Assembly: GCA_040005235.1 (NCBI GenBank)
Contig: JBDTZG010000001.1
Location: forward strand, 64,001 to 128,000
Direction of reading: 5' to 3'
DNA length: 64,000 nucleotides
Source of the DNA: Acidobacteriota bacterium
GTDB taxonomy: Bacteria; Acidobacteriota; Thermoanaerobaculia; Multivoradales; UBA5704
The notes beneath the pieces were generated by a model. The model had not been told where the DNA came from, did not search any database, and saw only the letters and a program-made list of their open reading frames with translations. A program made the position numbers and the translations under genes. Of this stretch, positions 3,124-61,946 are shown one piece after another (positions within the stretch are counted from its first letter, which is position 1; each line of letters opens with the position of its first letter).

Positions 3124-3618
3124 TCAAGTCTTGGACTCCGAGCCAAGAGCCGCCGTCGCGGCTCGACGAGGTTTCGCCCGGATTGTCGGCGGATCGGCTT
3201 TTTCGCCGAGTGAGTTGGTCCCCGCAGGCGCCAGCTTTTGTGGGCGTGGTTTCCGGGCGACCGGCACGATCGGCTCGACCGAGACCCGCACCTTGGCGCC
3301 GACCGCGAAAGCGAGTTTTGCGAGGCTGTAGAGGGTGAAATTCGCGTTGCCGCCGAGTACCTTTGTGACATACGCCTTCGAGGTCCCGAGTCGCCGCGCC
3401 AGCTCGGCGCGCGAGACCTTCTCCTCCTCCATCCGCGCCCAGAGGGCCTCGGTGAACTCGACGATCGCGCCCTCAGCCCAGTACTCGACGCTCTGTTCGG
3501 CCTCCTCGAACATTTTTCGGTAGCGGTCCAAGTTATCTTTCAATGCTTTCACGGTGACCGCGTGGTCGATCACGGCAAGAACATCCCAGGTTTCACGAGC
3601 GAGTCTCAGAACTCTCAC
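3124..3618 (-). CDS. XRE-family HTH protein (HigA-like antitoxin); the N-terminal ~20 aa may be a toxin remnant
   Basis: HTH VSRAELARRLGTSKAYVTKVLGGNANFTLYSL; GGAG RBS before GTG 3618; lower GC than flanks. Confidence 0.7.
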   Translation of the reverse strand: MRVLRLARETWDVLAVIDHAVTVKALKDNLDRYRKMFEEAEQSVEYWAEGAIVEFTEALWARMEEEKVSRAELARRLGTSKAYVTKVLGGNANFTLYSLAKLAFAVGAKVRVSVEPIVPVARKPRPQKLAPAGTNSLGEKADPPTIRAKPRRAATAALGSESKT

Positions 3619-3642
3619 GTTAATCTCCAGGTTAACTCGCTG

Positions 3643-5172
3643 TCAACCTCGTACCATCCGGCGATCGAGGCTTCGGTACTGAATCGCTTCGGCCAGGTGG
3701 ACGGGTTGGATCGGGCCGCCGCCCTCTAGGTCGGCGATGGTGCGGGAGACTTTGAGCACCCGGTCGAGGGCGCGGGCGGAGAGGCCGAGGCGCTCGAAGG
3801 CGGCTTCGAGCAGGGCGCGTCCTTCGGTCGTGGTGGTGCAGAAGCGGCGCAGCTCCTGGGTGTTCATCGCGGCGTTGATCGGCGAAGGGGACTCCGGGCC
3901 GAAACGGGCGGCCTGCTGCTCTCGGGCACGGCCGATCCGGGCGGCGACGTCCGCCGTGGTTTCGCCGCTCGTGCCGCGCAGATCCTTCAACGAGACCGCA
4001 GGTACCTCGACATGGAGGTCGATCCGGTCGAGCAACGGACCGGACACTCGCGCGCGATAGCGCTCGACCATCGGCGGCGGACAGCGGCAGTCGTAACGGG
4101 GATCGCCCAGATGCCCGCAGGGGCACGGATTCATCGCGGCGAGCAACGCGAAACGGGCGGGGAAGGTGAAGCGAGCCCGGGCTCGCACGACGCTCACCAG
4201 GCCCTCTTCGAGCGGCTGGCGCAGAGCTTCGAGCGTGTCGCGGCGAAACTCCGGCAACTCATCCAGAAACAGCACGCCGTTGTGCGCCAGGCTCGCCTCG
4301 CCCGGGCGCGGCGAGGGTCCGCCGCCGATCATGCCGACCGTCGAGGTTCCCGTATGCGGGCTACGGAACGGCCGTTCGAGCACCAGGCCGGCGGGAGGTT
4401 CCTCGGCCGCGAGCGACCAGATCTTCGTCACCTCGATCGCTTCGGCCAGGGCGAGCTGGGGGAGCAAGCCCGGCAGTCGGCGGGCGAGCATCGTCTTGCC
4501 CGAGCCCGGAGGACCCAGGAACAGCAGGTTGTGGCCGCCGGCCGCTGCGATCTCAAGCGCCCGCTTCGCTCCCGTCTGGCCGCGCACATCCGAGAGGTCC
4601 GGTCTTTTCTTGGTGCCGGTCGAAAAAACAACCTCGCGCGGCGACGCGCGGACCAGCGGCACGCTGCCGAGCGCGTGGTCGATCGCTTCCACCAGGTGGG
4701 CGACGCCGAACACCGGAATGGCGCCGAGCGCCGCGGCCTCCGGGCCGTTCGCGGCCGGCAGGATCACTTCGGCGAGCCCCAGCCGGGCGGCGAGGTCTGC
4801 CACCGCCAGGCCCCCACGCACCGAGCGGACGGTGCCGTCCAGGCCCAGCTCGCCGCAAAACAGGCGGCCGTTCAAGTTCTCTTCCGAGATCTGGCCGTAC
4901 GCCGCAAGCAGGGCGAGCGCGATCGCGAGGTCGAGGTGGTTCCCCTCTTTGCGCAGATCGGCGGGGGCAAGGTTCACTACGATCGACTTCGGCGGCAGGT
5001 CGAAGCCGCAATTTTTGAGCGCCCTCTGGACCCGTTCGCGGCTCTCGCGGATGGAGGCATCGGGTAGGCCGACGATTTGGATCTGGGGCAGGCCGTTGTG
5101 GACATCGACTTCGATCTGGACCGGTTGGGCTTCGATCCCCCAAGGGGTGGCTGCGGTGGCGCGGGCGAGCAT
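3643..5172 (-). CDS. comM: YifB/ComM Mg-chelatase-like AAA+ ATPase
   Basis: IVGLPDASIRESRERV, Walker A GPPGSGKT, RPFRSPH, LFLDELPEF, AAMNPCPCG, SGPLLDRID. Confidence 0.95.
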   Translation of the reverse strand: MLARATAATPWGIEAQPVQIEVDVHNGLPQIQIVGLPDASIRESRERVQRALKNCGFDLPPKSIVVNLAPADLRKEGNHLDLAIALALLAAYGQISEENLNGRLFCGELGLDGTVRSVRGGLAVADLAARLGLAEVILPAANGPEAAALGAIPVFGVAHLVEAIDHALGSVPLVRASPREVVFSTGTKKRPDLSDVRGQTGAKRALEIAAAGGHNLLFLGPPGSGKTMLARRLPGLLPQLALAEAIEVTKIWSLAAEEPPAGLVLERPFRSPHTGTSTVGMIGGGPSPRPGEASLAHNGVLFLDELPEFRRDTLEALRQPLEEGLVSVVRARARFTFPARFALLAAMNPCPCGHLGDPRYDCRCPPPMVERYRARVSGPLLDRIDLHVEVPAVSLKDLRGTSGETTADVAARIGRAREQQAARFGPESPSPINAAMNTQELRRFCTTTTEGRALLEAAFERLGLSARALDRVLKVSRTIADLEGGGPIQPVHLAEAIQYRSLDRRMVRG

Positions 5173-36001: not shown

Positions 36002-36116
36002 CGTGCGTCCTCCGTAAACGGTGCGTTGGAGAGCTTATCGCCTTTCTTCTCTCACACCTTTTGCTTCCTTCGCGGTCTATGATTCCACCACCGTTTTTGC
36101 GAAAGGTAGGAACCCG

Positions 36117-38648
36117 ATGCGTCCCATTCGCGTACTCCTCGCCGTGCCCGTGTTGGCGGCCTCGCTGCTGTTCGGCTTTGCCGGAATCGCATGGCCTGAG
36201 TCCGGCGCACCGTCCGAGGGGCCGAAAGATCCCGTCTACGCGGCGCTCCGCGCGGCCAAGCCCGACGGCCGGACGCTGGCCGTCACTAACCTGGTGCTCG
36301 AACGCGACGTGTTCCGATTCGAATTCGCGAGCGGCACGTTTCATTTTCTCGCCCCGGTAGAGGGCCGGACGATCGGCGCGGTCTTCCTCGGCCAGGGGAC
36401 GTTCCGGCTGACCCCCGCCACTCCCGGCGAGCGGCGCCGGCTGGCTCTCGACTCGGGCGGCGATCCGAAGACGTTCGAGACGCTCACCGACAGCTTCACC
36501 CGGCTGGTCCTGCTGTTCGGCGACGACACCGCGGCGGAGCTGCAGTTGGCGGCGCCGATCCAAACCGGCACCCCCAACCGCGAGGCGCTCGACGCGTGGG
36601 AAGCGCACATGAAGCGGGAGAGGAAGGACTACCACGTCAATTTCCACCTGCGCATCCTCGCCGACCTGCTCGACGTCCCCGGCCTGACCAGCGGTGCGTT
36701 CCTGGCATTTTTGGAGGGGCAGAAGATCGGCCCGGCACTCGCCGCGGTCGATCCCCGCGGGGCGGAAGCGCTCGGGGTGGGCGCGGGCGGCAAGGAAGAC
36801 GCGATGCTCTACGTCGTCGACGAGACCAAGGGGGGCTCCTGGTACGAATCGGAGAGCGCCGCCGAGATCAAGGGCGGACGGCGAACCTCGCTCTGGCGCT
36901 CGACCGACGCCACCCACTACGACGTGGAAACGGCGGTCGCCCGGGACGAGGACGTCGCCGGCACCACGACGATTCATTTTCAGGTGACCACGGCGAAGCT
37001 CCGCGTGCTGCCGGTCAACCTTCAGCCGGAGCTGCGCCTCCGCTCGGCGCGCTTTGCGCCCGAAGGGGAGGAGCGCTGGACCGCCCTACCGTTCGTCCAG
37101 GAAACCGAGAAGGAAGACGCCAATAGCGCCGTGATCTTCCCGCGCACGCTCTCCAAGGGAGAAAAGATCCGGCTGGAGCTGGCCTACGCCGGAGACAAAG
37201 TGCTGATCGACATGGGCGAGAAGAACTACGCCGTCCTCTCGCGGGTCGGCTGGTACCCGAACCTCGGCTTCTTCACCGATCCGGCGACTTTCACGCTCAC
37301 CTACCGGGTGCCGGTAGGCAACGAGATCATCTCGGTGGGCAACCCGGTCGAGACGCGGACGGAAGGTAAGCAGACGGTCTCGATCTGGAAGGCGGAGACG
37401 CCGATCCAGGTTGCCGGCTTCAACTACGGCAAATTCAAGAAGCACTCGAAGAAGGACGAGATCTCCGGCATCGAGGTCGAGGTCTGGACCAACCCGGGCA
37501 CGCCGGACGTGGTGCGCTCGATCAACAACGCGCTCGACAGAATCTCGGACGGCGAGAACGACGAGATCGATCCGGATGGACTGCTCGGCCCCGGCACCCG
37601 ATTCGGCGAGGGGATCGGCAATGTCAACACCGAGAAACTGGCCGATTCGGCGCTCGCCGACGGATTGAACTCCGCCCGGCTGTTCACCACCTATTTCGGG
37701 CCGATCCCGGCGACCCGGGTGGCGATCACGCAGCAATCCCAGTGGACGTTCGGCCAATCCTGGCCGGCGCTGATCTACATGCCGTACATGAGTTTTCTCA
37801 ACGGCACCCAGCGCCAGCGCGTGGGGCTGGGCGGCGCCAAGGATTTCGTCGCGTCGGTCGGCTATCACGAGTTCGCCCACCAGTGGTGGGGCCACCTGCT
37901 CGGCTGGGAGAGCTACCGCGACCAGTGGCTGTCGGAAGGCTTCGCCGAATTCTCCGCGGCCCTGGCCCTCCAGCACACGGCCGGCTGGGGCGCCTACGAC
38001 AAGTTCTGGCGCGAATCGAGGAAGCGGATCCTGGAGAAGACCCCCGGCAACGCCTTCGCGCCGTGGGAGGCCGGTGCGATCATCGACGGCTACCGCTCGG
38101 GCTCCTCGCGGGCGCCTTCGGCTCCTTTCTCCTTGATCTACGAGAAGGGAGGCTACGTCCTCCACATGCTACGCATGGCGATGTACGACGGTCGCTCGAA
38201 AGACCCAGACGCTCAGTTCATCGCAATGATGAAAGATTTCACCTCGACCTACGCGGGCAAGAACCCCTCGACCGCCGACTTCGCTGCGATCGTCGAAAAA
38301 CATCTGACACCCTCGTTGAACGCCACCCAGGACGGCAAGATCGCCTGGTTCTTCAACCAATGGCTCTACGGCAACGAGATGCCGAAGCTCACCTCCGACC
38401 TGAAGATCGAAGGCGCCGCCGACGGCGGTTGGCGCATCCACGGCACGATTACCCAGGCCGAAGTGGGGCCGGACTTCCGCACCCTCGTGCCGATCTATCT
38501 GGAGCTGGACAAAGGCCAGAACGTCCAAGCCGGCCTGCTCGCCATGGTCGGCTCGGCGACCAAGCCGGTCGACGTGGTGCTCAAACCGCCGAAGAAACCC
38601 CGCCGCGCGTTCGTCAACGCGCGCGGCGAGGTGTTGGCTCGGGATTGA
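36117..38648 (+). CDS. secreted M1-family aminopeptidase
   Basis: Signal peptide; HEFAHQWWG...WLSEGFAEF; YEKGGYVLHMLR. Confidence 0.9.
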   Translation: MRPIRVLLAVPVLAASLLFGFAGIAWPESGAPSEGPKDPVYAALRAAKPDGRTLAVTNLVLERDVFRFEFASGTFHFLAPVEGRTIGAVFLGQGTFRLTPATPGERRRLALDSGGDPKTFETLTDSFTRLVLLFGDDTAAELQLAAPIQTGTPNREALDAWEAHMKRERKDYHVNFHLRILADLLDVPGLTSGAFLAFLEGQKIGPALAAVDPRGAEALGVGAGGKEDAMLYVVDETKGGSWYESESAAEIKGGRRTSLWRSTDATHYDVETAVARDEDVAGTTTIHFQVTTAKLRVLPVNLQPELRLRSARFAPEGEERWTALPFVQETEKEDANSAVIFPRTLSKGEKIRLELAYAGDKVLIDMGEKNYAVLSRVGWYPNLGFFTDPATFTLTYRVPVGNEIISVGNPVETRTEGKQTVSIWKAETPIQVAGFNYGKFKKHSKKDEISGIEVEVWTNPGTPDVVRSINNALDRISDGENDEIDPDGLLGPGTRFGEGIGNVNTEKLADSALADGLNSARLFTTYFGPIPATRVAITQQSQWTFGQSWPALIYMPYMSFLNGTQRQRVGLGGAKDFVASVGYHEFAHQWWGHLLGWESYRDQWLSEGFAEFSAALALQHTAGWGAYDKFWRESRKRILEKTPGNAFAPWEAGAIIDGYRSGSSRAPSAPFSLIYEKGGYVLHMLRMAMYDGRSKDPDAQFIAMMKDFTSTYAGKNPSTADFAAIVEKHLTPSLNATQDGKIAWFFNQWLYGNEMPKLTSDLKIEGAADGGWRIHGTITQAEVGPDFRTLVPIYLELDKGQNVQAGLLAMVGSATKPVDVVLKPPKKPRRAFVNARGEVLARD

Positions 38649-38658
38649 TCACTCTCCC

Positions 38659-39693
38659 TTACGGGACGATGTAGGCTTCGAAGATCGCGTCCCAGTTGAG
38701 CGAGGAGCTGCCCGGCTTGGCCGAGTTGAACGAGTAGGCATAGACCTGCCAGTCGTTATCGGGGTCGGGGATGTTCCAGATCGAGACCCAACCCGAGTCG
38801 GGGGTGCCGGTGATGTCGATCAGGTTCACCACGTGGTCGAAGCGGAAGGTCAGGTCGGCCACGAGAGTTCCGTCCTCGCGGTAGCGCTTGTACGGATAGG
38901 TTTGGTCGCAGGTGCCGAGCGCCTGGCAGCGGGCCGACGGCCCTCCGGTCTGGTGGGTGTTCCAAGTGAAGATGACCATGCGGCTCTTGCCCGCGAGCGG
39001 CGTCGATCCGAACTGGCGCAGCTGAATGCGGTCGATCAGGGCGTTGGAATCGCCCGTGCATGGAGTGGTGCCCTTGACCAGCTGGTCGGCGCACTGGCGC
39101 GCCGAGGCGTCGATCTCCTCGCGTCGGCCAAAGCTGTAGAAGTCCCGCAGGAGCGGGTCGAGGGTCGCCGGCACCACTTCGAGCGGCACCATGGCGATGC
39201 CGTTGGCCGAGCCTTCGGACAGCCGGGTGTAGTAGATGTAGCCTTCGAGAAAGTTGACGAAAAGAAACGGGAAGGCAGCCTGCTCCGGATTGAGGCTGGT
39301 CGCCGCCGAGACGCCGTCGATGGTGACGAAGCCGTGGTAGAAGGCGCCGTCCGTGAGCTGGGTCTTGGTAGCCGTGGAGGCCAGGGAGATCAGGTCGCGC
39401 ATCGCGGCGCTCCAGGTCTGCGTCGGACTCAGCGTGACATTGCCTTGGAGTGTGGTGGCGACCCCGTCGATGTCCCAGACGTGGTAGTGGATCACTCGCG
39501 CCGTGTTGCTCTGGTTGTTCACCGCGAGCAGCGTGTCGTGCGGATTCACCCCAGAGTCGATGCCGGTCTCAAAAAACGGCACGATCAGCGAGGCGGAGGG
39601 CACGTGATCGGGAGTCCCGGGAATCGCCAGAAGCGCCGCGGGAATGGCGAGGACGGAGAGGAAGAGCGTAAGCAGAAGGGGAAGCTTGCGCAT
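38659..39693 (-). CDS. secreted hypothetical protein ('PSASLIVPFFE' family)
   Basis: GAAAGGAG RBS, signal peptide, beta-rich body with two Cys pairs. Confidence 0.8.
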   Translation of the reverse strand: MRKLPLLLTLFLSVLAIPAALLAIPGTPDHVPSASLIVPFFETGIDSGVNPHDTLLAVNNQSNTARVIHYHVWDIDGVATTLQGNVTLSPTQTWSAAMRDLISLASTATKTQLTDGAFYHGFVTIDGVSAATSLNPEQAAFPFLFVNFLEGYIYYTRLSEGSANGIAMVPLEVVPATLDPLLRDFYSFGRREEIDASARQCADQLVKGTTPCTGDSNALIDRIQLRQFGSTPLAGKSRMVIFTWNTHQTGGPSARCQALGTCDQTYPYKRYREDGTLVADLTFRFDHVVNLIDITGTPDSGWVSIWNIPDPDNDWQVYAYSFNSAKPGSSSLNWDAIFEAYIVP

Positions 39694-39805
39694 GAAGTCG
39701 TTTCTCCTTTCAGGGAGGTCGTTCAGGTTAGCCGGGCAACGGCGCTGCCGCCACCGGAAACTTTTGCCGGAGAAACCGGGCCGGAGGCGTGCCCTGGCTT
39801 ACCGG

Positions 39806-39821
39806 AGCAAGCGCGATGCCC
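39806..39821 (-). promoter_or_regulatory. candidate sigma54 (-24/-12) promoter
   Basis: Minus strand GGGCATCGCGCTTGCT = GG-N10-GC, resembling TGGCAC-N5-TTGC. Confidence 0.5.
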
Positions 39822-39824
39822 GGC

Positions 39825-40499
39825 TTATCGAATCTGCCGGTACAACCGGACCAGCCGCTCGGGCGACACCCCGAAGGCGAACAGCAGCCAGATCAGCCAG
39901 TTGGTGGCGATCGTCTTGGTGATTCCGCCCTCGACGAAGCGGCGAGCGGCGGTGACCGCCGGGCCGGGGAGCAGCGCCAGGCCATGAGCGCGGTTTAAGC
40001 GACCCGCGAAATCTAGGTCTTCGAGGATCGGCCAGTCGCGATAGCCGCCAAGCTGCTCGAACACATCGCGGCGGACGAACTGCGCCTGATCGCCGAGCGG
40101 GCGCTTGGTGATCCGGGTACGCAGGTTGACAATCCGGTTTCCCAACCTGAATAGCGGCCGGTCGGCGTCGAAGCGGACGAAGAACGCCCCGCCCGCGGCA
40201 CCGGCTTCGATCGCCCGTCTAATGGCGCCGCCGCTCCCTGGCGGAAGCACCGTGTCGGCATGAAGAAAGAGCAGAATGTCGGCGTTGGGGGCCGCCGCCG
40301 CGCCGCGGTTGAGCTGCACCCCTCGACCAGGAGATCCGATCACGACCGTCGCCCCCATTTCGCGCGCGATGTCGAGCGTAGCGTCGGTGCTGCCGCCGTC
40401 CGAGACGATCAGTTGATCGGCCTCGGCGCGCGCCCGGGCGAGGTAGGCGCGAACCGCGCGTTCCTCGTTCAAGGTCGGGACGACGATCGCGAGACGCAT
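39825..40499 (-). CDS. GT2 glycosyltransferase (TIGR04283-like)
   Basis: VPTLNEE, DGGSTD, GRGVQLNRGA, FLHADT, GDQAQFV, LED. Confidence 0.9.
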   Translation of the reverse strand: MRLAIVVPTLNEERAVRAYLARARAEADQLIVSDGGSTDATLDIAREMGATVVIGSPGRGVQLNRGAAAAPNADILLFLHADTVLPPGSGGAIRRAIEAGAAGGAFFVRFDADRPLFRLGNRIVNLRTRITKRPLGDQAQFVRRDVFEQLGGYRDWPILEDLDFAGRLNRAHGLALLPGPAVTAARRFVEGGITKTIATNWLIWLLFAFGVSPERLVRLYRQIR

Positions 40500-40604
40500 A
40501 GGGTTCAGGATGCCGAGGAATGTTAGCATGCGCCGCGCGCTCTCCTGGCGCGCAACTCCTTGATCCTACGCACGATGTCTCAACCTGGATGCGGAGACTC
40601 CCCG

Positions 40605-41096
40605 ATGGGATCGACCCCGTTTTCACATCTCGACGGCGACGGCGCGGCGCGCATGGTGGACGTCTCCGGCAAAGAGATCACCCGCCGCGTGGCCGAAGCC
40701 TCCTGCCGAGTGATCCTCTCGCCCGACACCGTGCGCGAGCTCTCCCGCCTGCCCAAGGGCGATGCCCTGGCAGTCGCCCGGCTCGCCGGCATCCAAGCCG
40801 CGAAGCGGACGGCCGAGCTGATCCCGCTCGCGCACCCGCTGCCGCTCGACCAGGTGGAGGTCGAGATCCGTTCGATCGAAACCGGAGTCGAGATCACGAG
40901 CCGCGTCGTCACGACCGCACGCACCGGCGCCGAAATGGAGGCGCTCACCGCCTGCGCGGTCGCGGCACTCGCGCTTTACGACATGGTGAAATCGGTAGAG
41001 AAGGGGGCCGTGGTCACCGACCTCCGCCTGGAGGCGAAAAGCGGCGGCAAGAGCGGCGACTTCGTTCGGGACGAATCCCGGCGAGAGGAAACGTAA
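40605..41096 (+). CDS. moaC: cyclic pyranopterin monophosphate synthase
   Basis: ARMVDVSGK, KGD, AGIQAAKRT..LIPLAHP, TGAEMEAL, LYDMVK, KSGGKSG. Confidence 0.96.
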   Translation: MGSTPFSHLDGDGAARMVDVSGKEITRRVAEASCRVILSPDTVRELSRLPKGDALAVARLAGIQAAKRTAELIPLAHPLPLDQVEVEIRSIETGVEITSRVVTTARTGAEMEALTACAVAALALYDMVKSVEKGAVVTDLRLEAKSGGKSGDFVRDESRREET

Positions 41097-42271
41097 TGAG
41101 CAAAGTCCTCAGCGGCCTCGACCGGCTGCTCGCCGATCCCGCGCGCCTCGCCGGCCGGCGCTTCGGCGTCCTCGCCCACGGCGCCTCGATCGACGCGCAC
41201 GCCCGGCCGATTCACCTGGCGCTCGCCGCCGCGGGCCATCCGGCGGCCAAGCTGTTCGGCCCGGAGCACGGCTTCTACGGTATCGAGCAGGACATGGTGG
41301 CCTCCGCCGGAGGGCTCGACCCGTGGACCGGTGCGCCGCTCGAATCGCTCTACGGAGATTCGGAGAGCACGCTCCGCCCAGACCCCTCGGCGTTCGCCGG
41401 CCTCGACCTGCTGATCGTCGACGTCCAAGACATCGGCTCGCGCTACTACACCTATGCCGCGACAGGAATCTGGGCCGCGGAAGCCGCGCGCAAAGCGGGC
41501 TGCGAAGTCTGGGTGCTCGATCGGCCGAACCCGCTCGGCGGAGAAGTCGTCGAAGGCAACCTCCTCGCCCCAGGTTTCGAATCGTTCGTCGGCGCGTTCC
41601 ATCTGCCGGTGCGCCACGGCCTCACGCTCGGCGAGCTGTTCCGGCTGCGGGCGCAAAGGGAGGGCGGGGAGCCGCAGGCGCAAGTCTGGACGATGGACGG
41701 CTGGCGCCGCGACATGGCCTGGGGCGAGACCGGTCTCCCCTGGATCGCCCCGTCGCCCAACATGCCGACTCCGGCCACCGCGATCGTCTACCCCGGCGGC
41801 TGCCTGATCGAAGCGACGGAGCTGTCCGAAGGGCGCGGCACCACGCGGCCGTTTCATCTGACCGGAGCCCCCGGCCTCGACCCGCTCGCGTTCGCCAGCG
41901 AGTTGGAGAAACGCGACCTGCCAGGAGTCCGTTTCGTGCCCACCTGGTTCAAGCCGCAGTTCCAGAAGCACCGGGGAGAGATCTGCGGCGGAATCGAAAT
42001 GGTGGTCGAAGACCCCGCGGCGTTTCGCTCCTACCGCACGGGCATCGAGATGCTCGACGTCGTCGCGAGATTGGGAGCGCTCACCTGGCGGACGGCGCCC
42101 TACGAATTCGTCGAGGACATCCCGGCGGTCGATCTGCTCACCGGCGGAACAGAGTGCCGGAAGGCGATCGAGCGCGGGGAGGGCCTCGACGAATGGATGG
42201 GCACGTTCGCAGCGGAGGAAGAGGCTTTTCGGGTGGAGCGGCGGGAGATCCTTCTCTACCCGGAGGGGTGA
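41096..42271 (+). CDS. namZ: exo-beta-N-acetylmuramidase NamZ (DUF1343)
   Basis: FGPEHG, SLYG, DVQDIGSRYYTY, LDRPNP, RHGLTLGE, PSPNMP, SEGRGTTRPF. Confidence 0.93.
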   Translation: MSKVLSGLDRLLADPARLAGRRFGVLAHGASIDAHARPIHLALAAAGHPAAKLFGPEHGFYGIEQDMVASAGGLDPWTGAPLESLYGDSESTLRPDPSAFAGLDLLIVDVQDIGSRYYTYAATGIWAAEAARKAGCEVWVLDRPNPLGGEVVEGNLLAPGFESFVGAFHLPVRHGLTLGELFRLRAQREGGEPQAQVWTMDGWRRDMAWGETGLPWIAPSPNMPTPATAIVYPGGCLIEATELSEGRGTTRPFHLTGAPGLDPLAFASELEKRDLPGVRFVPTWFKPQFQKHRGEICGGIEMVVEDPAAFRSYRTGIEMLDVVARLGALTWRTAPYEFVEDIPAVDLLTGGTECRKAIERGEGLDEWMGTFAAEEEAFRVERREILLYPEG

Positions 42272-44583
42272 TTTCGTCGGGGCGGTTCCTCCGGCCCAAA
42301 AATCTCGCCAACCTCGGCCGGGCTCATTTCCTGGGACCGCCGCCGTCTCGGCGGCGCGGGCGCCGAACGGTCTGTCACGGCACGTTCTTGCCGCACTCGC
42401 AGATCGGCGCGCTGCTGTTCGAGAAGGAGGACGACGGCTCTGGCGCTTCGGCCCAGGATCTCGTCCCTGCCGACCGGCTCGGCAATCTCCTCGCGAGCTA
42501 CCGCATCCCGCTCGTCTTGTTTGAAGCTTGCCGTAGCGCCACGGTGGGCAAAGCTGCCGTTTTCCGGTCGGTGGCACCGCGTCTGATCAAAGCGGGGGTG
42601 GGCAGCGTCCTGTCGATGAGCTACGCGGTCCACGTCGAAGCTGCGCGCCTGCTGCTCGACCGCTTCTATCGCGAGCAGGCGCGGGGAACCACGATTGGTC
42701 ACGCCGTCGCCGAGGCGAGGAAAGCGCTCTTATTGACTCGCGCTCGATGGATCGAGACAGGTCCGAACGGACGCCGGATCGATTTGCGCGATTGGTTCCT
42801 GCCTCACCTCTATCAGCGCGCGAACGACGACTCGCTCGTTCCTCCCGATGCGGCGGCGAAGAGGCCACTGCGGTTGTTCGATGTCTTCCTCTCTCACCAG
42901 TACAATGACCTGGCGCGAGTCGAAACGCTCGCCCGGGCGCTGATGGAGAAGCACGGCCTGCGGGTCTGGCTGGACAAGTGGCAGGTTGCCCCAGGAACGC
43001 TGCGGGACCTGTGCGAGGAAGGAATCCGCGCCAGCCGCTTCACGGTGGTCGCGGTCTCGGAAGATGCGCTCGGCTCCAACTGGGTGAAGTGGGAGGCGGC
43101 GAAGCACGCCGAGATCTACCCGCAGGGCGACCGGATGATCCCGATCAAGCTCGAGCCGCTCAACATGCCGCCGGAGTGGAACTCTCTCCTCTGGGTCGAT
43201 TTCACCGATCCGGCGAAAGATGTCGAACAGGCCGCCTATCTCGCCTCGCTGATCCGCACCGCCGACGCCGAAGACGCCCGCCGCCATCGCGGCTTTCGAA
43301 GCCCTCCGGGCCGCGGCGAGCCGGGGGCGTTCCCCCCGCCGCCCGCGTTCGGCTTCCAGGGTCGGGCGCTCGAGCTGTACGACCTCGAACGCTGCTTACG
43401 CACTTCGCGCGGCATCGTGCTCCACGCGATGGGCGGAATGGGAAAGACCGCGCTCGCAGCCGAGGCGGCCGACTGGTGGACACGTAGCGGCCTGTTTCGC
43501 GACGGTGCCTGCTTTCTCTCTTTCGAGCAGTTCGCGAGCGCCGACCGGGCGGTCCAGCTCTTCGGTTCGTATCTCGAAGGCCCGCGCTTCGAACAGCTCC
43601 CAGCCACCGAGCAACGCCGCCGGGCGATCGAGTTGCTGCGAGACAAGGAAGTGCTCTTCGTTTGGGACAACTTTGAGAGCGCGCTCCCACAGTTCGCGGA
43701 GGAAGTGGCCGGAGCGGCAAGCCCGTACACGGACGAGGAGCGCCTCCGCCTCGCCGAGTTGTTCCGAGATCTCACCGCCGGCCCAGGGAAGGGCCGCATT
43801 CTCGTCACCTGCCGCCCCGGAGAGACCGGATTACCCAACGCCGAGCGCTTCGAACTCTTCGGCCTCGCCCGCGCCGACAGCCTCTGGCTCCTTGCGAGCA
43901 TCGTTCAACGCGATGGCTTGACACTCGCCGATCCGCGCTTCGCCCGCGCGCGGCTCGATCCGCTGCTGGCCGATCTCGCCGACCATCCTCTCTCGCTGGA
44001 GCTGGTCGGCCCGCACCTCCGCACGCTTACTCCGGAAGCGATCCGGGCGGATTTCGGGACGCTGCTGGTTGAGGCCCGGCAAAAAGCTCACGAAGGGAGG
44101 AACGAGTCGCTCCTCGCGTCGCTGGAGTTCTCCAAGAAGCATTTGAGCCCGGCGGCCCGTGAAGCATTGCCCTGGCTAGGACTGCTCCACGGCGGGGTGT
44201 TCGAGCAACGGTTGCTCGACGTGAGCCAGCTCACCCCGGTAGAGTGGAAGCCGATCCGCCGCAAGCTTGAAGGGATCGCGCTTCTACGGGTGGTGGATGG
44301 CATCCAGGTCGCGGCGCGGAAGCGCGACGAGTTGCTCGAAGAGCTGAAGCGTCGCGCCGGAGGGAGCAGCACCAGCCTGCCACCCGCGACGCTGCGCGCC
44401 TTACAGGCCCTCACGATCGCCTGCGCTCAGGCGGGCAACGGGGAGGGTGCTCTCGGCCCTGCCGAGGAAGAGTCTCTGGCCCAGCTGGAGCAGGCCCCCG
44501 CGCCGAATCCTGCCTTCGCCGGGTTTCTTCGCGATGTCGCCGCGGGGCGGGTGCTGCGCGAGGAGCTGCACGGCGGCGCGTAA
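42268..44583 (+). pseudogene. truncated CHAT-TIR-STAND NTPase (NLR-like) gene
   Basis: CHAT HG...EACRS; TIR FDVFLSH...VWLDKW...SNWVKWE; NTPase FQGR..EL, GGMGKT, VWDNFE, LVTCR; no N-terminus and no TPR array. Confidence 0.75.
42331..42356 (+). repeat. REP-like palindrome
   Basis: CTGGGACCGCCGCCGTCTCGGCGGCG; related copies at 61916 and 28961. Confidence 0.55.
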
Positions 44584-44651
44584 CTTCCCCCGGCGCCAAC
44601 TGCCGCCGCCCTCCACGAGGGGAAGGACCTGCGCTCGACGTCGGTGCTTGC

Positions 44652-44678
44652 TGAAACGGGGGCGTCGCCGCCCCCGTT
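44652..44678 (-). terminator. hairpin terminator between convergent genes
   Basis: AACGGGGGCG-TCGC-CGCCCCCGTT. Confidence 0.55.
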
Positions 44679-44709
44679 CTCCAATCCGATCAGAAAAGAA
44701 GGTTTCGCC

Positions 44710-45372
44710 TCAGTGGCCGACGGTGATGATGTCTGCCGGGAAGCGCGGATCGATCTCGTAGTGGGTGTCGAACTGGCTGCTGAAGCCGGAAATCGAGACG
44801 AGCTGGTTGAGGGAGAGGGCGAACGCGTCGATCCCGGTCTGGGTATTGATGAAGATCTGCACCTCCCCCGAGCCGTCGTCGACCGCGAGCTTGTAGCCGT
44901 ACGGCAGATCGCTCGACGGCGCCTGGCTGACCCGGCCGATGACGCGGACGAGCCGCCCTTCGGTCGCTTCGCTGACCGCGGCGGTCTGCACCCAGACGGG
45001 GTGCACTGGCAAGGTGAGCCCAAGCAGGTGGACGTCGCTCGGATTGGCGGGCACGAGAATCAGCAGTCCGAAGCTGTCGGCGAGGACGCCGGTCACCCGG
45101 GCCCGGCGCAGGATGCCGACGTGAAGGTCGGTTTGCAGGCTGATGAAGATGCCAGCGTTGCCCTGCTGGAGGCCGAAGCCCTTGTCGAAGAAGCTCGACT
45201 CGAAAGCGTCCGAGGGGGTGCTGATCGTCCCCTCGACGGTGACGACGGTGCCGAGCGGTAGAGTTCGAGCGTGGGCGATCGTCGTCGTCACCGCGGCGGC
45301 CGGAGCCGCGACGGACAGGAGGGCGAAGAGGGCGAGGACGGACAACAGCACCGGTCGGGTGGCTCGGATCAT
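44710..45372 (-). CDS. secreted protein with two OB-fold-like domains
   Basis: Signal peptide; TIAHARTLPLGTVVTVEG, EGRLVRVIG, VDDGSGEV, YEIDPR...DI. Confidence 0.8.
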   Translation of the reverse strand: MIRATRPVLLSVLALFALLSVAAPAAAVTTTIAHARTLPLGTVVTVEGTISTPSDAFESSFFDKGFGLQQGNAGIFISLQTDLHVGILRRARVTGVLADSFGLLILVPANPSDVHLLGLTLPVHPVWVQTAAVSEATEGRLVRVIGRVSQAPSSDLPYGYKLAVDDGSGEVQIFINTQTGIDAFALSLNQLVSISGFSSQFDTHYEIDPRFPADIITVGH

Positions 45373-45545
45373 CGGGTTTGAACCTCTCTAGGAAAGTGGG
45401 GCGAGAAAAGAGATGCCCCCCGGCGCGTGTCGCCGGGCGGGTCGTGTGTACTGCGTTGCTATAAGAGTGGGTGCGAAAAGGTGGGGAAAGCGCGACAATT
45501 GGAAAGGCACCCATTCGCCCGTCGAGGCCGTGCTCGATCCGGCCG

Positions 45546-48089
45546 CTAGGGCGGGGGAGCGGCAGGCGGCGGTGGCTCCGGAGCAGGTTCGGCGGGCGGC
45601 GGCGGGGCGACCGACGGCGGGGCCTCTTCCGCGGTTCCTTCCTGGCCCGGCGGTGCCGCGACCGCTCCCGGCTCTGGGGGGCGCTGGGTCATCTCTTCGC
45701 CCTCTTTCGGCACGTAGAACGACTTCTGCTGGAACCAGGGGAGCGTCATCACGGTCGACCATTTCGGATCGTATTCCTTGAGCGGCTCGGTGCCGTTGAC
45801 AAACGCCTCATCCACCGTCCGGCTGCTCCCTTCGCTCGGACGGAGGCCCGAGTAGTACTCGACGGGCCGCTGGGAGACCCCCGCCGGCACCGCGAACGTC
45901 TCGCCTTTCTGCACCCAGCCGTCGGCCAACCCCGACTTGACGATCGAAATCCAGGTCGGCAGCGAAGCGATCGCGCCGCTCATCCCCGAACCGAGCGAGC
46001 GCTTGGCGTCGTAACCGGTCCAGGTGAGGATCGTGTAGTTCGGCGTGAAGCCGACGAACCAGGCGTCGGAGTAGTCGTCGGTGGTGCCGGTCTTGCCCGC
46101 GAGATCGAGCGGCAGGTCGTGCGCTTCGTAGGCGGTGCCGTGGTCGATCACCCCTTCGAGCATGTGGGTGAGCACGAAAGCGACCGCCGGGGCCATCGCG
46201 GTCTGGGCATTCGGCACGTGGCTTTCGAGCGTCTGTCCTTCGCGGCTGGCGATCTTCTCGATCAGGTAGGGTTCGACGTGAGTGCCGAGGTTCGCCACCG
46301 TCGCGTAGGCGGTCGCCAGCTCCATCGGGGTCAAATCCGCCGAGCCGAGCGCGAGGCTGGGGTAAGGCGGGAGCGGCGACTGGACGCCACAGCGGCGTGT
46401 GAAGTCGATCACCCTTTGCACGCCCACCAGGTCCATCAGCTTCACCGTCGCCACGTTCACCGACTGCTCCAGCGCGCGGCGGAGCGTGATGATGCCGTAA
46501 TACTTCTTGTAATAGTTGTGCGGTGTATAGCTCAATTTGCCGTCGGCGCCCTTGAAGGCGGTCGGCACGTCGAGCAGGGTGTCGGCCGGGGTCCAGCCGT
46601 TCTCGATCGCGGACCCGTAGACGAACGGTTTGAACGCCGAGCCGACCTGGCGCCGGGCCTGGGTGATGCGGTTGAACTTGTTGCGGTCGAAGTCCCAGCC
46701 GCCGACCAGGGCGCGGATCGCGCCGGTGCGCGATTCGATCACCACGGCGGCCGATTCCATCCGCGGTTCCTGTTCGAGCATCAGGATCGGCTCGGCGACC
46801 TCCTCCGGCTTGTCCTTGGCGGCTTTGCCAGGCACCAGACGGAACCAGGCGACGGCGCCTTTCGGCAGCACGGTGGACGCGAGAGTGCGGCCGGTCCATT
46901 CGAAACCCTTCTTGCCGAGGGTGTAGACCTTTTCGCCGATCTTCACCCGCGCCTGGACCTTGTCGCTGTCGAGCACGATGCCCTGATACCAGCGGCCGAT
47001 CTGCGGATCGCCCTGGCCCCAGGTCGGCCGCGTCTGATCTTCCAGGTGCTCGACGTCGAGCTGGGCGAGCGGCCCGCGCCAGCCGCGCCGGTGATCGATC
47101 CGGCGCAACCCCTCGTCCACCGCCTTTTCGGCCGCCAACTGGATTTGCGGATCGAGCGTGGTGGTGACTTCCAGACCCTGCTCGTAGAGCGCGGTGGCGC
47201 CGTACTTGGTTTCTAGATACTTCCTCACCTCTTCGGTGAAGTAGGGGGCGGCCTGCTCTTCCGTCCGGCGCGGGGCGACGCGTAAAGGTTCGGCGTTCGC
47301 ATGGTCGAACTGCGCCTGGGTGATGAAGTTCTCTTCGAGCATGCCGCGCAGCACCCGATTGCGCTGCGAGAGCACCTTGTCGGGCGTGCGGTACGGGCTG
47401 TAGCGGCTGGGCGCGGGGATGATCCCGATGAGGGTCGCCGCCTCGGCGAGGGTCACATCCTTGGCTGACTTTTCAAAGTAGTAGCGCGACGCGGCCTCGA
47501 CCCCGTAATTGCCGTGACCCAGGTTCACCAGGTTCAGATAAAGCGTCAGCAACTGCTGCTTGCTGTACTTTTTCTCCAGCTCGACCGAGATCAGCGCCTC
47601 TTCGACCTTCCGGCGCCAGGTTTTCTCGCGCGACAGGAACAGCGTCCGGGCGAGTTGCATGGTGATCGTCGAAGCGCCTTCGACGATGTGGCCGGAGCGA
47701 AGGTTCTTCACCTCGGCGCGCAGAATGCCTTGCAGGTCGATACCGCCGTGGGAAAAGAAGTTGCGGTCCTCCGAGGCGATCACCGCCCGGCGCAGCACCT
47801 CGGGAATCTCCGCCTGCGAGAGCATCATCCGGCGCTCGCGGGCGAAGGTCGCAAACTGCGCGCCCTTCCGATCGAACAGCTCGGTCACCAGCCGCGGCGT
47901 ATAGGAGGAGACCTCTTCCACCTGCGGCCGGCGGATCACCGCGGCGATGCCGACCCCCCCCGCCGCGCCGAGCACGGCGGCGATGCAAAGCGGGGCAAGC
48001 CAGCGCAGCAGGCGCTTGCCCGGGCGGGAGCGCATAGGGGTGCCTAACGAGGGGCCGATCGTGCGCGGGGGGAGCGGGTCGTAGTCCAC
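45546..48089 (-). CDS. mrcA: penicillin-binding protein 1A (class A PBP)
   Basis: EDRNFFSHGG, GASTITMQL, RK..E, YLN; transpeptidase S.FK, S.N, KTGT. Confidence 0.95.
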   Translation of the reverse strand: MDYDPLPPRTIGPSLGTPMRSRPGKRLLRWLAPLCIAAVLGAAGGVGIAAVIRRPQVEEVSSYTPRLVTELFDRKGAQFATFARERRMMLSQAEIPEVLRRAVIASEDRNFFSHGGIDLQGILRAEVKNLRSGHIVEGASTITMQLARTLFLSREKTWRRKVEEALISVELEKKYSKQQLLTLYLNLVNLGHGNYGVEAASRYYFEKSAKDVTLAEAATLIGIIPAPSRYSPYRTPDKVLSQRNRVLRGMLEENFITQAQFDHANAEPLRVAPRRTEEQAAPYFTEEVRKYLETKYGATALYEQGLEVTTTLDPQIQLAAEKAVDEGLRRIDHRRGWRGPLAQLDVEHLEDQTRPTWGQGDPQIGRWYQGIVLDSDKVQARVKIGEKVYTLGKKGFEWTGRTLASTVLPKGAVAWFRLVPGKAAKDKPEEVAEPILMLEQEPRMESAAVVIESRTGAIRALVGGWDFDRNKFNRITQARRQVGSAFKPFVYGSAIENGWTPADTLLDVPTAFKGADGKLSYTPHNYYKKYYGIITLRRALEQSVNVATVKLMDLVGVQRVIDFTRRCGVQSPLPPYPSLALGSADLTPMELATAYATVANLGTHVEPYLIEKIASREGQTLESHVPNAQTAMAPAVAFVLTHMLEGVIDHGTAYEAHDLPLDLAGKTGTTDDYSDAWFVGFTPNYTILTWTGYDAKRSLGSGMSGAIASLPTWISIVKSGLADGWVQKGETFAVPAGVSQRPVEYYSGLRPSEGSSRTVDEAFVNGTEPLKEYDPKWSTVMTLPWFQQKSFYVPKEGEEMTQRPPEPGAVAAPPGQEGTAEEAPPSVAPPPPAEPAPEPPPPAAPPP

Positions 48090-48754: not shown

Positions 48755-49669
48755 CTACCCGAGCCCCGCAACCCGTGGTGCCACCGCGAGGAGCGCGCGG
48801 GGGAGCGCTCCGGCTCCCGCGAAGTGAAACCAAGCCTGCCGGTGGGGCAGGGGGACGAGCAGCCAACAGCCGTCGGGTCCGGGGTAGGAGGCGACGTGCG
48901 AGGAGAGGCCGCGCGCGAGGAGCTGGGGTGGGGGAAAATTCCTGAGGATATCGACCTGGCTCGCGAGGTCGGAGAGCCGTTCCAGCGCCGACGAATCCGG
49001 CGCGGTTCGCCATACGGTGGGATAAAGGGTCCCGTCGGTCTCCCGCTCGAGGATCAGGGCCTGGTCGCATTGCCCGGCGAGGTGCTCGAACAACGAAGTG
49101 GCTAGATCCGGCGCGGAGATGTCGAGCGTACGCACCGCCCGCAAATACACCTCCAAGGGGGAAAAGCTCATGTCGGGGTCGAAGACGCCGGTATAGCGCG
49201 CCGTGCAGCGCAGCTCGATCGAAGTGCCGGCGGCTGCCCAGGCGAGGCCCAGAATCCCCTTGACGGTATGGGCGAGCAGGAACTCGCGAACCTGCTCGAA
49301 CGACGCTTCGGGGCTCGCGCGGACAAGCGAGGAAAAGGTGGCGAAGCGCCCGTGGGCCGCCCGGGTGAGGCGGCCGATGAGTGCCAGCATGTCCGGGTCC
49401 TCTTGCGAGAGCAGCGCGGTCGCCTCGGCGCCGACGCGAGATCGTTCGACGTAACAGATCTTGCCGTTCTGCACGAGGAGGGCGGAAAGCTCGCGGCCAT
49501 CGGGGTGGACGAGCGCCATCCGCGCTGCGCCGCGCAAGCTCTCGATCGGCGTGAGCAACCGCATCAAGAAGGCCGGCAGCGGCTCGGGGAGCAGAGGCCG
49601 ATCCGGGGCTGCCGCATTCGACCGCGGGTCTACTGGCAGCAGATACGACGGAAACGACACCGAAGGCAT
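48755..49669 (-). CDS. hypothetical protein
   Basis: About 304-aa ORF with protein-like composition; start uncertain. Confidence 0.55.
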   Translation of the reverse strand: MPSVSFPSYLLPVDPRSNAAAPDRPLLPEPLPAFLMRLLTPIESLRGAARMALVHPDGRELSALLVQNGKICYVERSRVGAEATALLSQEDPDMLALIGRLTRAAHGRFATFSSLVRASPEASFEQVREFLLAHTVKGILGLAWAAAGTSIELRCTARYTGVFDPDMSFSPLEVYLRAVRTLDISAPDLATSLFEHLAGQCDQALILERETDGTLYPTVWRTAPDSSALERLSDLASQVDILRNFPPPQLLARGLSSHVASYPGPDGCWLLVPLPHRQAWFHFAGAGALPRALLAVAPRVAGLG

Positions 49670-49875
49670 GAACACAAGACCCCGCGCTAAAGCTGCTCTA
49701 GGTAAGTATCGCTTATTTTCGGTAGGTGGCAATAGGTCAATGTGGCGGGGCGGGGGTCCCGGTTTGGGAGGGTTGCGGTGGTTTGATGCGGGTTGGCGTA
49801 GAGATGCCGGCTCAATATAGTCACGAAGCAACGCCCAGGCTAGCGCACCGCCGCTCCGAGTGAAGGGAGATACCT

Positions 49876-51243
49876 ATGGGCCAATCCAAAGCTGGGCGCA
49901 ACGACCCTTGCCCCTGCGGAAGCGGCAGGAAATACAAGCACTGCTGCCTGGCGGATCAGCGCCCGCGGCCGAGCCAGCTGCCTTCATCCGGCGCCGGCAT
50001 CGCGATCGATTGGCTTTGGGAGAACCACCCGAGCGCCGTAGGCGCGGCGATCGACAGGGGTTTCTTCGGCGTGTTTGGTCCGCAACAAATCGAGGAGCTG
50101 TTCGGGTCGATTCCTGCCGACCTTACCGAGGTGATCGAGCACACCATGAACGAGTGGCTGCTGGCCGAAGCGGTGCTGGAGCTGGAAGCGGGCCGGATTC
50201 GCACGGCGGATCTCTTCCTCGGTCCGGGTGGCCCGCGGCTCGACGTGGCTCAGCGGGAGTGGCTACTAACTCTCGCCTCCTGGCCGCTCACGGTGTACGA
50301 AGTGGTCGAAAGCCGGCCCGGCGAGGGGATGGTGCTCAAGAGCGCCCTTTCGGCCCGTTCGCCTCGGCTCGAAGTGCGTGAACGCTTGGCCTCAGAGCAG
50401 CTCGTTCGCGGATCGGTCTTTGGCGGACGTCTGCTCCCGATCGGGGACGAAAGGTGGGAGCTCAGCGGCATCGTCTATCCGCTGGAGCATCTCGACCTCG
50501 ACATCCTCCGTCGTGCGGTTCGGAGGAAGCGCCCGACCGCCGTGTCCGAGACGATTCGCGATCTCTGGCTCCAGCGGGTTGCCCAGCCCTTTTCGCCGCC
50601 CAACCTCGTGAGCGCCGCCACCGGCGAACCGATGCTGATGGTCACTGACCTGTACCGAATCACCGATTGGCCCGGTCTGGTTCGAGCGCTCGCTAAAGAG
50701 CCCGATGTCGAAGGCGATCGCGACGACGGCTGGATTCGGTTTATTGATCCCGAGGCGGAGATCCTGCGTCCGCGGGTCGCGCTAAACCCGGGGGCTGAAC
50801 CGGATCAGCTGGAGCTGTTCGCCCACACGCTGGGACTCGCCGACGAATCCCGCGATTGGTTCCGGAAGGTGGCCGGAGTTCGCGCCCGATTCCTCGACCG
50901 GCGGATCGTCGATCCGGTGAGCGAATTCTTAAGCCAACGGGAAGGCTCCCAAGCCGATCACCCGGCTCGCCCCGTTTCACCGCCTCTCGAAGTAAGCCAG
51001 GAGTTCCTTCAGAAAGCGATCGAGGCGCATTACCATCATTGGGCCGACCAGGATGTACCCGCCCTCGACGGCTTGACGCCGCGCGAGGCACTCGCAACTC
51101 GAACGATGCGCCAAAGAGTGATCGACCTGCTCAAGATGTACGAGCACAAGGAACTCGAAGCCGCCCACCGAGAGGGGCGCGAATCCGCGAGCTACGAGTT
51201 TCTCTGGAAATCGGTCGGCCTGAGCCGTGGGCGGTATATCTAG
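49876..51243 (+). CDS. SEC-C motif protein with C-terminal MbcA/ParS-like domain
   Basis: [18 protein letters not shown]; [14 protein letters not shown]. Confidence 0.85.
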
Positions 51244-61842: not shown

Positions 61843-61915
61843 GCCGTCGGGGTGCCTGCCGCCGCGGTCAGCTGTACCCGTTGGTTTGAGGAACGCCCCC
61901 TCGGTCGCGCTCCCC

Positions 61916-61946
61916 CTGGGACCGCCGGCGTCTCGCCGGCGTTTTT
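61916..61946 (+). repeat. REP-like palindrome / terminator
   Basis: CTGGGACCGCCGGCG-TCT-CGCCGGC-GTTTTT. Confidence 0.6.

Follow-up and report, generated by a model that had tools for sequence, protein, structure and literature searches.

Is a bacterial NLR-like gene that carries two effector domains and no sensor a receptor of a new design, or is it what remains of a larger one? This question is raised by a single open reading frame, stop-free over 771 codons (positions 42268-44583, plus strand), in the window, by which we mean the whole stretch of 64,000 nucleotides of Acidobacteriota bacterium DNA analysed here (GenBank assembly GCA_040005235.1, contig JBDTZG010000001.1, positions 64,001 to 128,000). 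The initial annotation had described this frame as a gene for a caspase-like CHAT protease, a TIR domain and a STAND NTPase, stripped of its sensor. Here we demonstrate that it was made by three deletions of a gene for a STAND receptor of about 1475 amino acids (aa), and we consider it very probably a recent pseudogene. Its intact relatives make up a genuine family, a conserved variant among bacterial NLR-like receptors, and are a candidate immune system. The account as a whole, i.e., a recent pseudogene of a single-chain STAND receptor together with the mechanism proposed below, is the best explanation we can offer and seems to us, on balance, probable.

The open frame is the remnant of a larger receptor gene

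The domain calls of the initial annotation were upheld by Pfam, and the motifs lie where it had placed them. The CHAT match (aa 35-158, E 4.5e-14) is confined to profile positions 149-270 of 289, the TIR_2 match (aa 206-320, E 3.5e-20) is complete, and the NACHT match (aa 384-520) scored 26.3 bits, slightly below the Pfam cut-off of 26.7; no TPR match was obtained from Pfam in the 771-aa frame. For P0002, the intact orthologue in the same-genus genome G003, the NACHT score was 30.1 bits, and relatives gave weak NB-ARC matches. The window copy (P0001, genome G000) has the CHAT residues His37 (codon at 42376) and Cys88 (EACRS, 42529), the TIR residue Glu276 (WVKWE, 43093), Walker A Lys393 (43444) and Walker B Asp467 (43666). 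In family numbering, the STAND motifs K583, T584, D657, R706 and H763-P764-L765 are all retained, and the strand-helix order of the NTPase in the predicted structure fits STAND.

In G003 the intact P0002 gene occupies the same site, after namZ and before the OB-fold gene. A base-level comparison of the window with G003 revealed three deletions, all clean, of 834, 1503 and about 316 bp (Table 1). At the 5' end, 834 bp of G003 (the intergenic region, the ATG and codons 1-225) are replaced by 101 bp of filler bearing a repetitive extragenic palindromic (REP) element, in agreement with the REP-containing sequence that had been noticed upstream of the His codon. The REP core (42330-42355) is present in 2 copies in the window versus 0 in 100 shuffles, and genome-wide about 22 matches in G000 stack on this core. 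The internal deletion removed 1503 bp in frame, that is P0002 aa 873-1373 (the end of the winged helix, the helical region and all TPRs), with about 1 bp of microhomology; its junction is the abrupt jump that had been reported near 44310. The 3' deletion fused the gene to 11 brnA codons that are also found downstream in G003. What had been taken for a short helical tail is actually a C-terminal domain native to the family, with 89% identity to P0002 aa 1374-1452, and only the last 11 codons come from BrnA. The deleted coding parts (2.2 kb) were not found elsewhere in the G000 genome. Thus, the absence of TPRs holds as an observation, but the sensor-stripped design does not, the frame being a triple-deletion remnant.

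The brnA remnant (in G003 L016:3934-4050) differs between the window and G003 at four positions, all synonymous or stop-to-stop, which indicates that a BrnTA module stood here until recently. The second REP copy of the window lies at 61915-61940. In locus L120 an open frame adjoining a family member (3914-4366) is presumably a candidate REP-associated transposase-like gene.

Table 1. The remnant gene and its flanks in window coordinates.
Feature	Positions	Strand	Evidence or remark
namZ (exo-beta-N-acetylmuramidase), upstream flank	41096-42271	+	Pfam NamZ_N, NamZ_C; Gly-stop codons give GTGA overlap
Non-coding filler read in frame	42272-42373	.	Replaces 834 bp of G003
REP-like palindromic repeat, ends at 5' deletion junction	42329-42372	.	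About 22 core matches; hairpin -21.4 kcal/mol
C-terminal half of separase/Csx29-like CHAT protease (P0002 aa 227-385)	42376-42852	+	Pfam, structure model
Complete TIR domain, catalytic-type Glu276	42871-43272	+	Pfam TIR_2; similar in fold to the TIRs of SPARTA and AbTir
STAND NTPase: Walker A GGMGKT, Walker B WDNFE, sensor-1 Arg, HPL	43330-44097	+	Pfam, alignment, model
Winged-helix region, truncated ahead of second wing strand and invariant FHPTL	44098-44313	+	Model mapped via alignment
Junction of in-frame 1503-bp (501-codon) deletion	44313/44314	+	Base-level comparison with G003
Native C-terminal helical domain (P0002 aa 1374-1452)	44314-44550	+	Present in 104 of 120 homologues
Final 11 codons and stop of decayed brnA antitoxin gene	44548-44583	+	Joined via about 316-bp deletion
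Conserved OB-fold protein gene, downstream flank	44710-45372	-	Homology/Pfam

The intact family has a two-effector architecture

The search for full-length CHAT-TIR-STAND-TPR homologues, proposed with the initial annotation, was successful: there are at least 223 proteins of at least 1351 residues. The 120 long homologues listed are about 1475 aa in length, have CHAT, TIR and TPR matches and are 63-89% identical to the core. Their chain consists of a pseudo-protease plus an active CHAT protease, followed by the TIR, the STAND NTPase, a winged helix, a helical/TPR superhelix and a small helical tail. Residues H223, H227, C278, E466, K583, T584, D657, R706 and HPL 763-765 are invariant in all 120 aligned members, and the His-Cys dyad among them (H227, C278) is shared by the window copy.

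The model of P0002 aa 1-814 reached a mean predicted local distance difference test score (pLDDT) of 73. Its residues 1-385 align with the protease domain of separase (5fc2; Z 20.1, root-mean-square deviation 3.7, 307 aligned) and with the TPR-CHAT protein of Craspase (8d9f; Z 19.5, root-mean-square deviation 3.4, 290 aligned). The TIR model resembles the TIRs of SPARTA and AbTir (Z 14-16); with this fold and the catalytic Glu in helix C the domain appears to be of the enzymatic type, and cleavage of nicotinamide adenine dinucleotide (NAD+) is predicted. The C-terminal half was modelled as a winged helix, a TPR superhelix and a four-helix tail (pLDDT 88.8). The matches listed for the sensor fold are all generic TPR superhelices, LGN/Pins among them; they include no Avs chain, which excludes nothing. 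Mean column identity differs little between the TPR region (0.76) and the TIR (0.79), and this suggests a conserved ligand. The top Foldseek match was the tetramer of the plant TIR-NLR RPP1 (7crc, E 3.4e-8, TM-score only 0.18), and the nearest ESM Atlas clusters are CHAT/TIR/TPR proteins that carry automatic names only. Extra N-terminal regions were seen in L060:338-5656 and in P0114 (1837 aa), the latter with AAA_22/AAA_35 matches ahead of CHAT.

Functional state of the window copy

The protease of the window copy lacks the pseudo-protease domain and strands 157-162, 192-197 and 221-225 (model numbering), i.e., more than half of the protease, and one of the deleted core strands leads into the catalytic His. 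Hence the dyad pointed out in the initial annotation is kept, but most of the protease fold ahead of it is deleted; the complete caspase-hemoglobinase fold is found in the intact P0002 and not in the window copy. Likewise, the complete winged helix and the C-terminal repeat sensor, present in the intact family (TPR_12, E 1.5e-26), are deleted. The invariant FHPTL position, which we take to correspond to the MHD motif of NB-ARC proteins, falls into the missing part. With the G004 gene as the outgroup, 31 nonsynonymous and 50 synonymous changes were assigned to the G000 side and 18 and 62, respectively, to the G003 side (Fisher p = 0.04). At columns conserved in at least 90% of sequences, P0001 carries six changes (V274L, L275F, H309Y, L327Q, F830L and E856K) that are not seen in P0002-P0004.

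Several observations weigh against decay. The relaxation signal is marginal at this p value, with one outgroup, and P0002 deviates at 13 conserved columns, compared to 16 in P0001. The 646 core codons contain no stop and no frameshift, the overall ratio of nonsynonymous to synonymous substitution rates (dN/dS) is 0.109, and all motifs are intact. In addition, a start codon stands in the reading frame and the internal deletion keeps it, a coincidence of about 1 in 20 according to a rough estimate made after the fact. The intact frame, the low dN/dS and the kept motifs fit a decay that is recent.

The same features would be seen if a 771-aa product were made via read-through from namZ and kept as a sensor-less TIR-STAND protein, constitutive or dominant-negative, with a dead protease part. 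The frame is continuous, the internal deletion is in frame, the TIR and NTPase motifs are intact, dN/dS is 0.08-0.13 across TIR and STAND, and a GGAGG is situated immediately 5' of the GTG. However, the spacing between this GGAGG and the GTG is 1 nt. The GTGA overlap with namZ, which had been thought to allow translation of the product, is real, but it is the conserved namZ terminus: G003 and G004 have an identical GTGA at the stop of namZ, and in neither does it initiate anything. We therefore rejected translational coupling as a sign of selection. Read backwards, the frame runs on without a stop through namZ as far as 41323, which indicates that open frames are cheap in this 67% GC DNA. Moreover, the winged helix is truncated ahead of FHPTL, and the congener G007 lost different parts. 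The architecture of half a CHAT domain, TIR, STAND and tail was represented by the window's own protein only among the 120 shorter homologues listed, so that a recurring sensor-less form was rejected as well; P0210, another shorter homologue, has a different internal deletion. Taken together, a maintained read-through product appears improbable, and a recent pseudogene remains the preferred reading. The 5' loss was probably the first of the deletions, since a sensor-less STAND-TIR protein, if made, would be misfolded or toxic. A scan for sigma-70 promoters over 39500-45600 gave 0 sites versus 0.3 expected and is thus uninformative.

In each of two runs (X1 and X2, depth about 16 and 11), one contig covers 40500-46500 with 0 differences, 0 gaps and no joint at the junctions, at the level of contigs and not of raw reads. 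It is hardly credible that the deletions are assembly artefacts of the metagenome-assembled genome, since these contigs match the window and the missing sequence is nowhere in G000, even though the runs are not independent, coming from one study that is possibly the source of this DNA.

The namZ site in congeners

At the same site G007 contains a remnant with other deletions (of the gene, nt 1-83, 3391-3638 and 4056-4428 are left), in which TPR pieces are kept and both effectors are lost, and in G001 and G002 the gene is absent. The site at the 3' end of namZ is a turnover hotspot. The synonymous divergence (dS) from G003 is 0.635 in the core versus 0.17-0.36 in four flanking genes, and the identity to relatives shifts from segment to segment of the gene; this points to allele exchange, as in a rapidly exchanged accessory gene. 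P0001, P0002 and P0003 share a TIR variant (W-Q for W-E at 429 and Trp at 494) that was seen in 2 of 120 homologues, yet the linker that follows is 96% identical to P0004, suggesting a mosaic gene.

An isoamylase-CBM20 gene stands at the namZ 3' end in G001, G004 and G007 (L017, L026 and L025, respectively) and is absent from G000, G002 and G003. An 18-bp tandem repeat array precedes the OB-fold gene in G001 and G007. In G377, which belongs to another genus, a family member is located near namZ in the opposite orientation (L123).

Probable gain and loss of the TIR domain

The CHAT-STAND-TPR scaffold occurs in three forms, with a nested TIR, without a TIR and with an N-terminal TIR (L093, L098). 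Among the loci scored with purpose-built domain profiles, the slot between CHAT and STAND contained either a TIR or nothing. A tree from a quick search was built from the CHAT and STAND parts of 54 rows (39 with nested TIR, 14 TIR-less and 1 with N-terminal TIR), the duplicates L028, L030, L046, L049 and L053 being omitted. A TIR-less clade of 9 rows (SH-aLRT 96), including 4 of the 5 tandem copies of G013, is embedded in the nested-TIR clade, and a further pair without TIR is placed beside nested members; the root is uncertain owing to the long-branch rows L041, L036 and L089. The TIR-less linkers retain eroded remains of the post-TIR helix. Among 33 TIR-less proteins, the His motif was recognised by pattern search in 28 and the Cys motif in 30, the misses not having been inspected. 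Hence, with the uncertain root in mind, a single gain of the nested TIR, followed by two or more losses, is the probable history. The tree suggests that the TIR is a dispensable add-on, rather than an indispensable trigger, in a protease NLR whose ancestral output is the protease.

The G013 array (G013:C3:7360526-7379669, L024) consists of five tandem TIR-less CHAT-STAND-TPR paralogues, 61-68% identical to P0002, and is preceded by a gene for a 1360-aa TPR-CHAT-TIR protein. There is a two-copy array in L081, and L036 has three more distant copies. Heavily frameshifted copies (L021, L039, L040, G374 and G377) may reflect sequencing errors and were therefore left out of the count of decayed genes.

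Distribution and neighbourhood of the family

Of 91 other genomes belonging to the same bacterial family, 12 contain a near-full-length match in one piece; in a phylum-wide sample of 300 others there was no such match. Further members are labelled Planctomycetota, Gemmatimonadota, Thermodesulfobacteriota, Verrucomicrobiaceae and Aquincola. CHAT matches number 25 in G000, 29 in G003, 33 in G004, 46 in G007 and 57 in G013, and among the controls 1 of 14 genomes had any; this acidobacterial family has undergone a large CHAT expansion.

A conserved partner or substrate gene was sought and rejected: the 575 called neighbours at 76 loci formed only generic ABC, two-component and near-identical-locus clusters, and 9 further loci (3 of them duplicates) contained no recurring partner gene. 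Of 154 nearest neighbours at 52 loci, identified by simple gene calls, 140 were scanned, and 15 of them had PADLOC matches at E <= 1e-8. Four of these are housekeeping look-alikes according to NCBIfam (ABC transporter, beta-galactosidase, RpoH and endonuclease III) and 3 are generic. Among the system models of PADLOC and NCBIfam there was none that covers the full protein, and no Avs match was obtained with PADLOC 2023, a release that predates Avs7-21. Viral carriage was rejected, no relative having been found in viral contigs, as was plasmid carriage, where the 12 matching records of the plasmid collection match the CHAT part only, at less than 40% identity.

At L031:3330-6047 a guanylate-cyclase/AAA/TPR gene is directly upstream of an intact member. 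In the window itself, the gene at 36021-38648 (plus strand) is presumably M1-peptidase-like. The gene at 38659-39693 (minus strand), without a Pfam match at cut-off, we assume to encode a secreted protein. The open reading frame of 358 aa at 48755-49831 (minus strand) is unassigned, and we take 49876-51243 (plus strand) to encode a SEC-C-motif protein.

Proposed mechanism and role of the intact receptors

We consider it likely that the intact family has an immune or cell-death role. By analogy with Avs and plant TIR-NLRs, the resting receptor would be bound to adenosine diphosphate with its TPRs folded back. The TPR groove would bind a conserved ligand, most probably a phage protein, and nucleotide exchange would then lead to STAND oligomerisation. 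The TIRs, which adjoin the NTPase, would cluster as in plant TIR-NLRs and cleave NAD+, and the separase-like proteases, brought into an active state, would cut a host substrate, resulting in cell arrest or death. The two outputs would act in parallel, the protease being the ancestral one. The substrate is probably a host protein, because no substrate gene travels with the family.

An extension of this scheme, in which one STAND oligomer couples two death outputs, protease and TIR NADase, and self-cleavage between TIR and NTPase could free CHAT-TIR, is speculative and in our view doubtful. The linker between TIR and NTPase contains the motif D523-A-E-D-A-R-R-R-R-G-F-R534 (DAEDARRRRGFR linker), in which acidic residues are followed by Arg. 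Of 120 TIR-bearing proteins 96 have this pattern, the proposed site of the cut, against 4 of 39 without a TIR; those that have it include a large subclade to which the window gene belongs. The pattern resembles the ExxR site of separase and is missing from the most divergent TIR-bearing members.

Some results speak against a role in defence. Plausible defence genes make up 8 of the 140 neighbours, at about 5 of the 52 loci, with no background control, and most of the named neighbours are core metabolic or housekeeping genes. The TPR region shows no arms-race variation, and many of the 25-57 CHAT matches per genome may be signalling proteins. These results could be accommodated if the window copy were a pseudogene but the intact family comprised signalling or developmental STAND-gated proteases of the HetF or DdvA type, in which the TIR would produce a local nucleotide signal. 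The members are solo genes amid housekeeping genes with little defence context, their TPRs are conserved and non-variable, and CHAT genes are numerous in each genome. Furthermore, there is a weak NCBIfam HetF match (E 6.7e-5, far below cut-off), and the fold search also brought up DdvA (8rw5, Z 16.1). In addition, STAND clades that act in defence are interspersed with others that do not (PMC13581612). On the other hand, the patchy presence, the repeated loss at one site within one genus, the allele exchange and the five-copy array of G013 resemble conflict genes, and the invariant TIR Glu fits an NADase output. A signalling role is thus the strongest of the alternatives, although we regard it as unlikely.

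The family could also follow the logic of type IV Thoeris in a single chain, with a messenger of the cyclic ADP-ribose type made by the TIR activating the fused protease in cis while STAND and TPRs sense the phage. A TIR and a caspase-like protease do cooperate in type IV Thoeris (10.1101/2024.10.24.620036), and both active sites are invariant in the family. However, the TIR was lost at least 2 times with the protease dyad mostly kept, one TIR-less clade expanded in tandem, some proteins with this scaffold carry the TIR N-terminally (L093, L098), and the protease is of the two-domain separase/Csx29 type and not a short caspase. Such a relay is therefore very improbable; the dispensability of the TIR makes parallel outputs the likelier arrangement.

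Comparison with known systems and significance of the family

In the full-text literature, with subscription papers outside this coverage, we found no description of the domain order CHAT-TIR-STAND-TPR. At least 90 defence STAND families have been reported, including caspase-like effectors on Apaf-1 orthologues (PMC13581612); the terms CHAT and caspase are absent from 7 supplements of that paper, although its larger tables may already list the clade. NLRs with CHAT, TIR or metacaspase effectors (10.1101/2020.01.06.895854; PMC3501461), a two-gene TIR-caspase system (10.1101/2024.10.24.620036), the likeness of CHAT to separase and its ExxR site (PMC9729208) and caspase and TIR effectors in conflict systems (PMC7159879) have been described, and in one study Avs and stand-alone TIRs are set aside (10.64898/2025.12.03.692087).

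Like Avs (AVAST, Avs1-21; PMC13581612), the family is a stand-alone single chain with an N-terminal effector, a STAND NTPase and a TPR-like sensor. In contrast to Avs, it has CHAT and TIR effectors in tandem, no PADLOC Avs match and a weak defence neighbourhood, and its role against phages is predicted only. All-in-one bacterial NLRs (10.1101/2020.01.06.895854) and metacaspase-NACHT/NB-ARC proteins (PMC3501461) similarly have their blocks fused to a nucleotide-binding oligomerisation domain and repeats, but they possess one effector per NLR, as far as these sources extend, whereas the family has both, the TIR being inserted in the CHAT-STAND linker. The plant TIR-NLRs RPP1 and Roq1 share the TIR directly before the nucleotide-binding domain, with a sequence match to the Roq1 TIR; they differ from the family, which has a TPR and not a leucine-rich repeat sensor, an extra protease in front and about 15% identity. 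With the TPR-CHAT protein (Csx29) of Craspase and with separase (PMC9729208) the family has in common a pseudo-protease plus an active protease and the His-Cys dyad (Z 19-20). It differs in being gated by STAND and not by a CRISPR effector or securin, and no csx30-like substrate gene is nearby. Type IV Thoeris (10.1101/2024.10.24.620036) also combines a TIR with a caspase-fold protease in one system. However, it consists of two genes with an obligatory small-molecule relay, while the family has one chain with STAND and TPRs and a dispensable TIR; the separate TIR and short caspase genes that characterise type IV Thoeris are not a feature of the family, and TIR-less relatives mostly keep the dyad, contrary to what a protease dependent on a TIR-made messenger would suggest.

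The window copy itself, as a decaying gene, is of little import. The family, however, represents a natural experiment, in which the same protease-STAND-TPR scaffold exists with a nested, a front or no TIR and the nearest pairs share 60-70% identity. These forms let one ask whether a second NLR effector provides redundancy, a relay or a different outcome. The family also poses the question of what a separase-type protease targets when no substrate gene is linked to it, and P0094, which comes from a named betaproteobacterial species, offers a tractable entry point.

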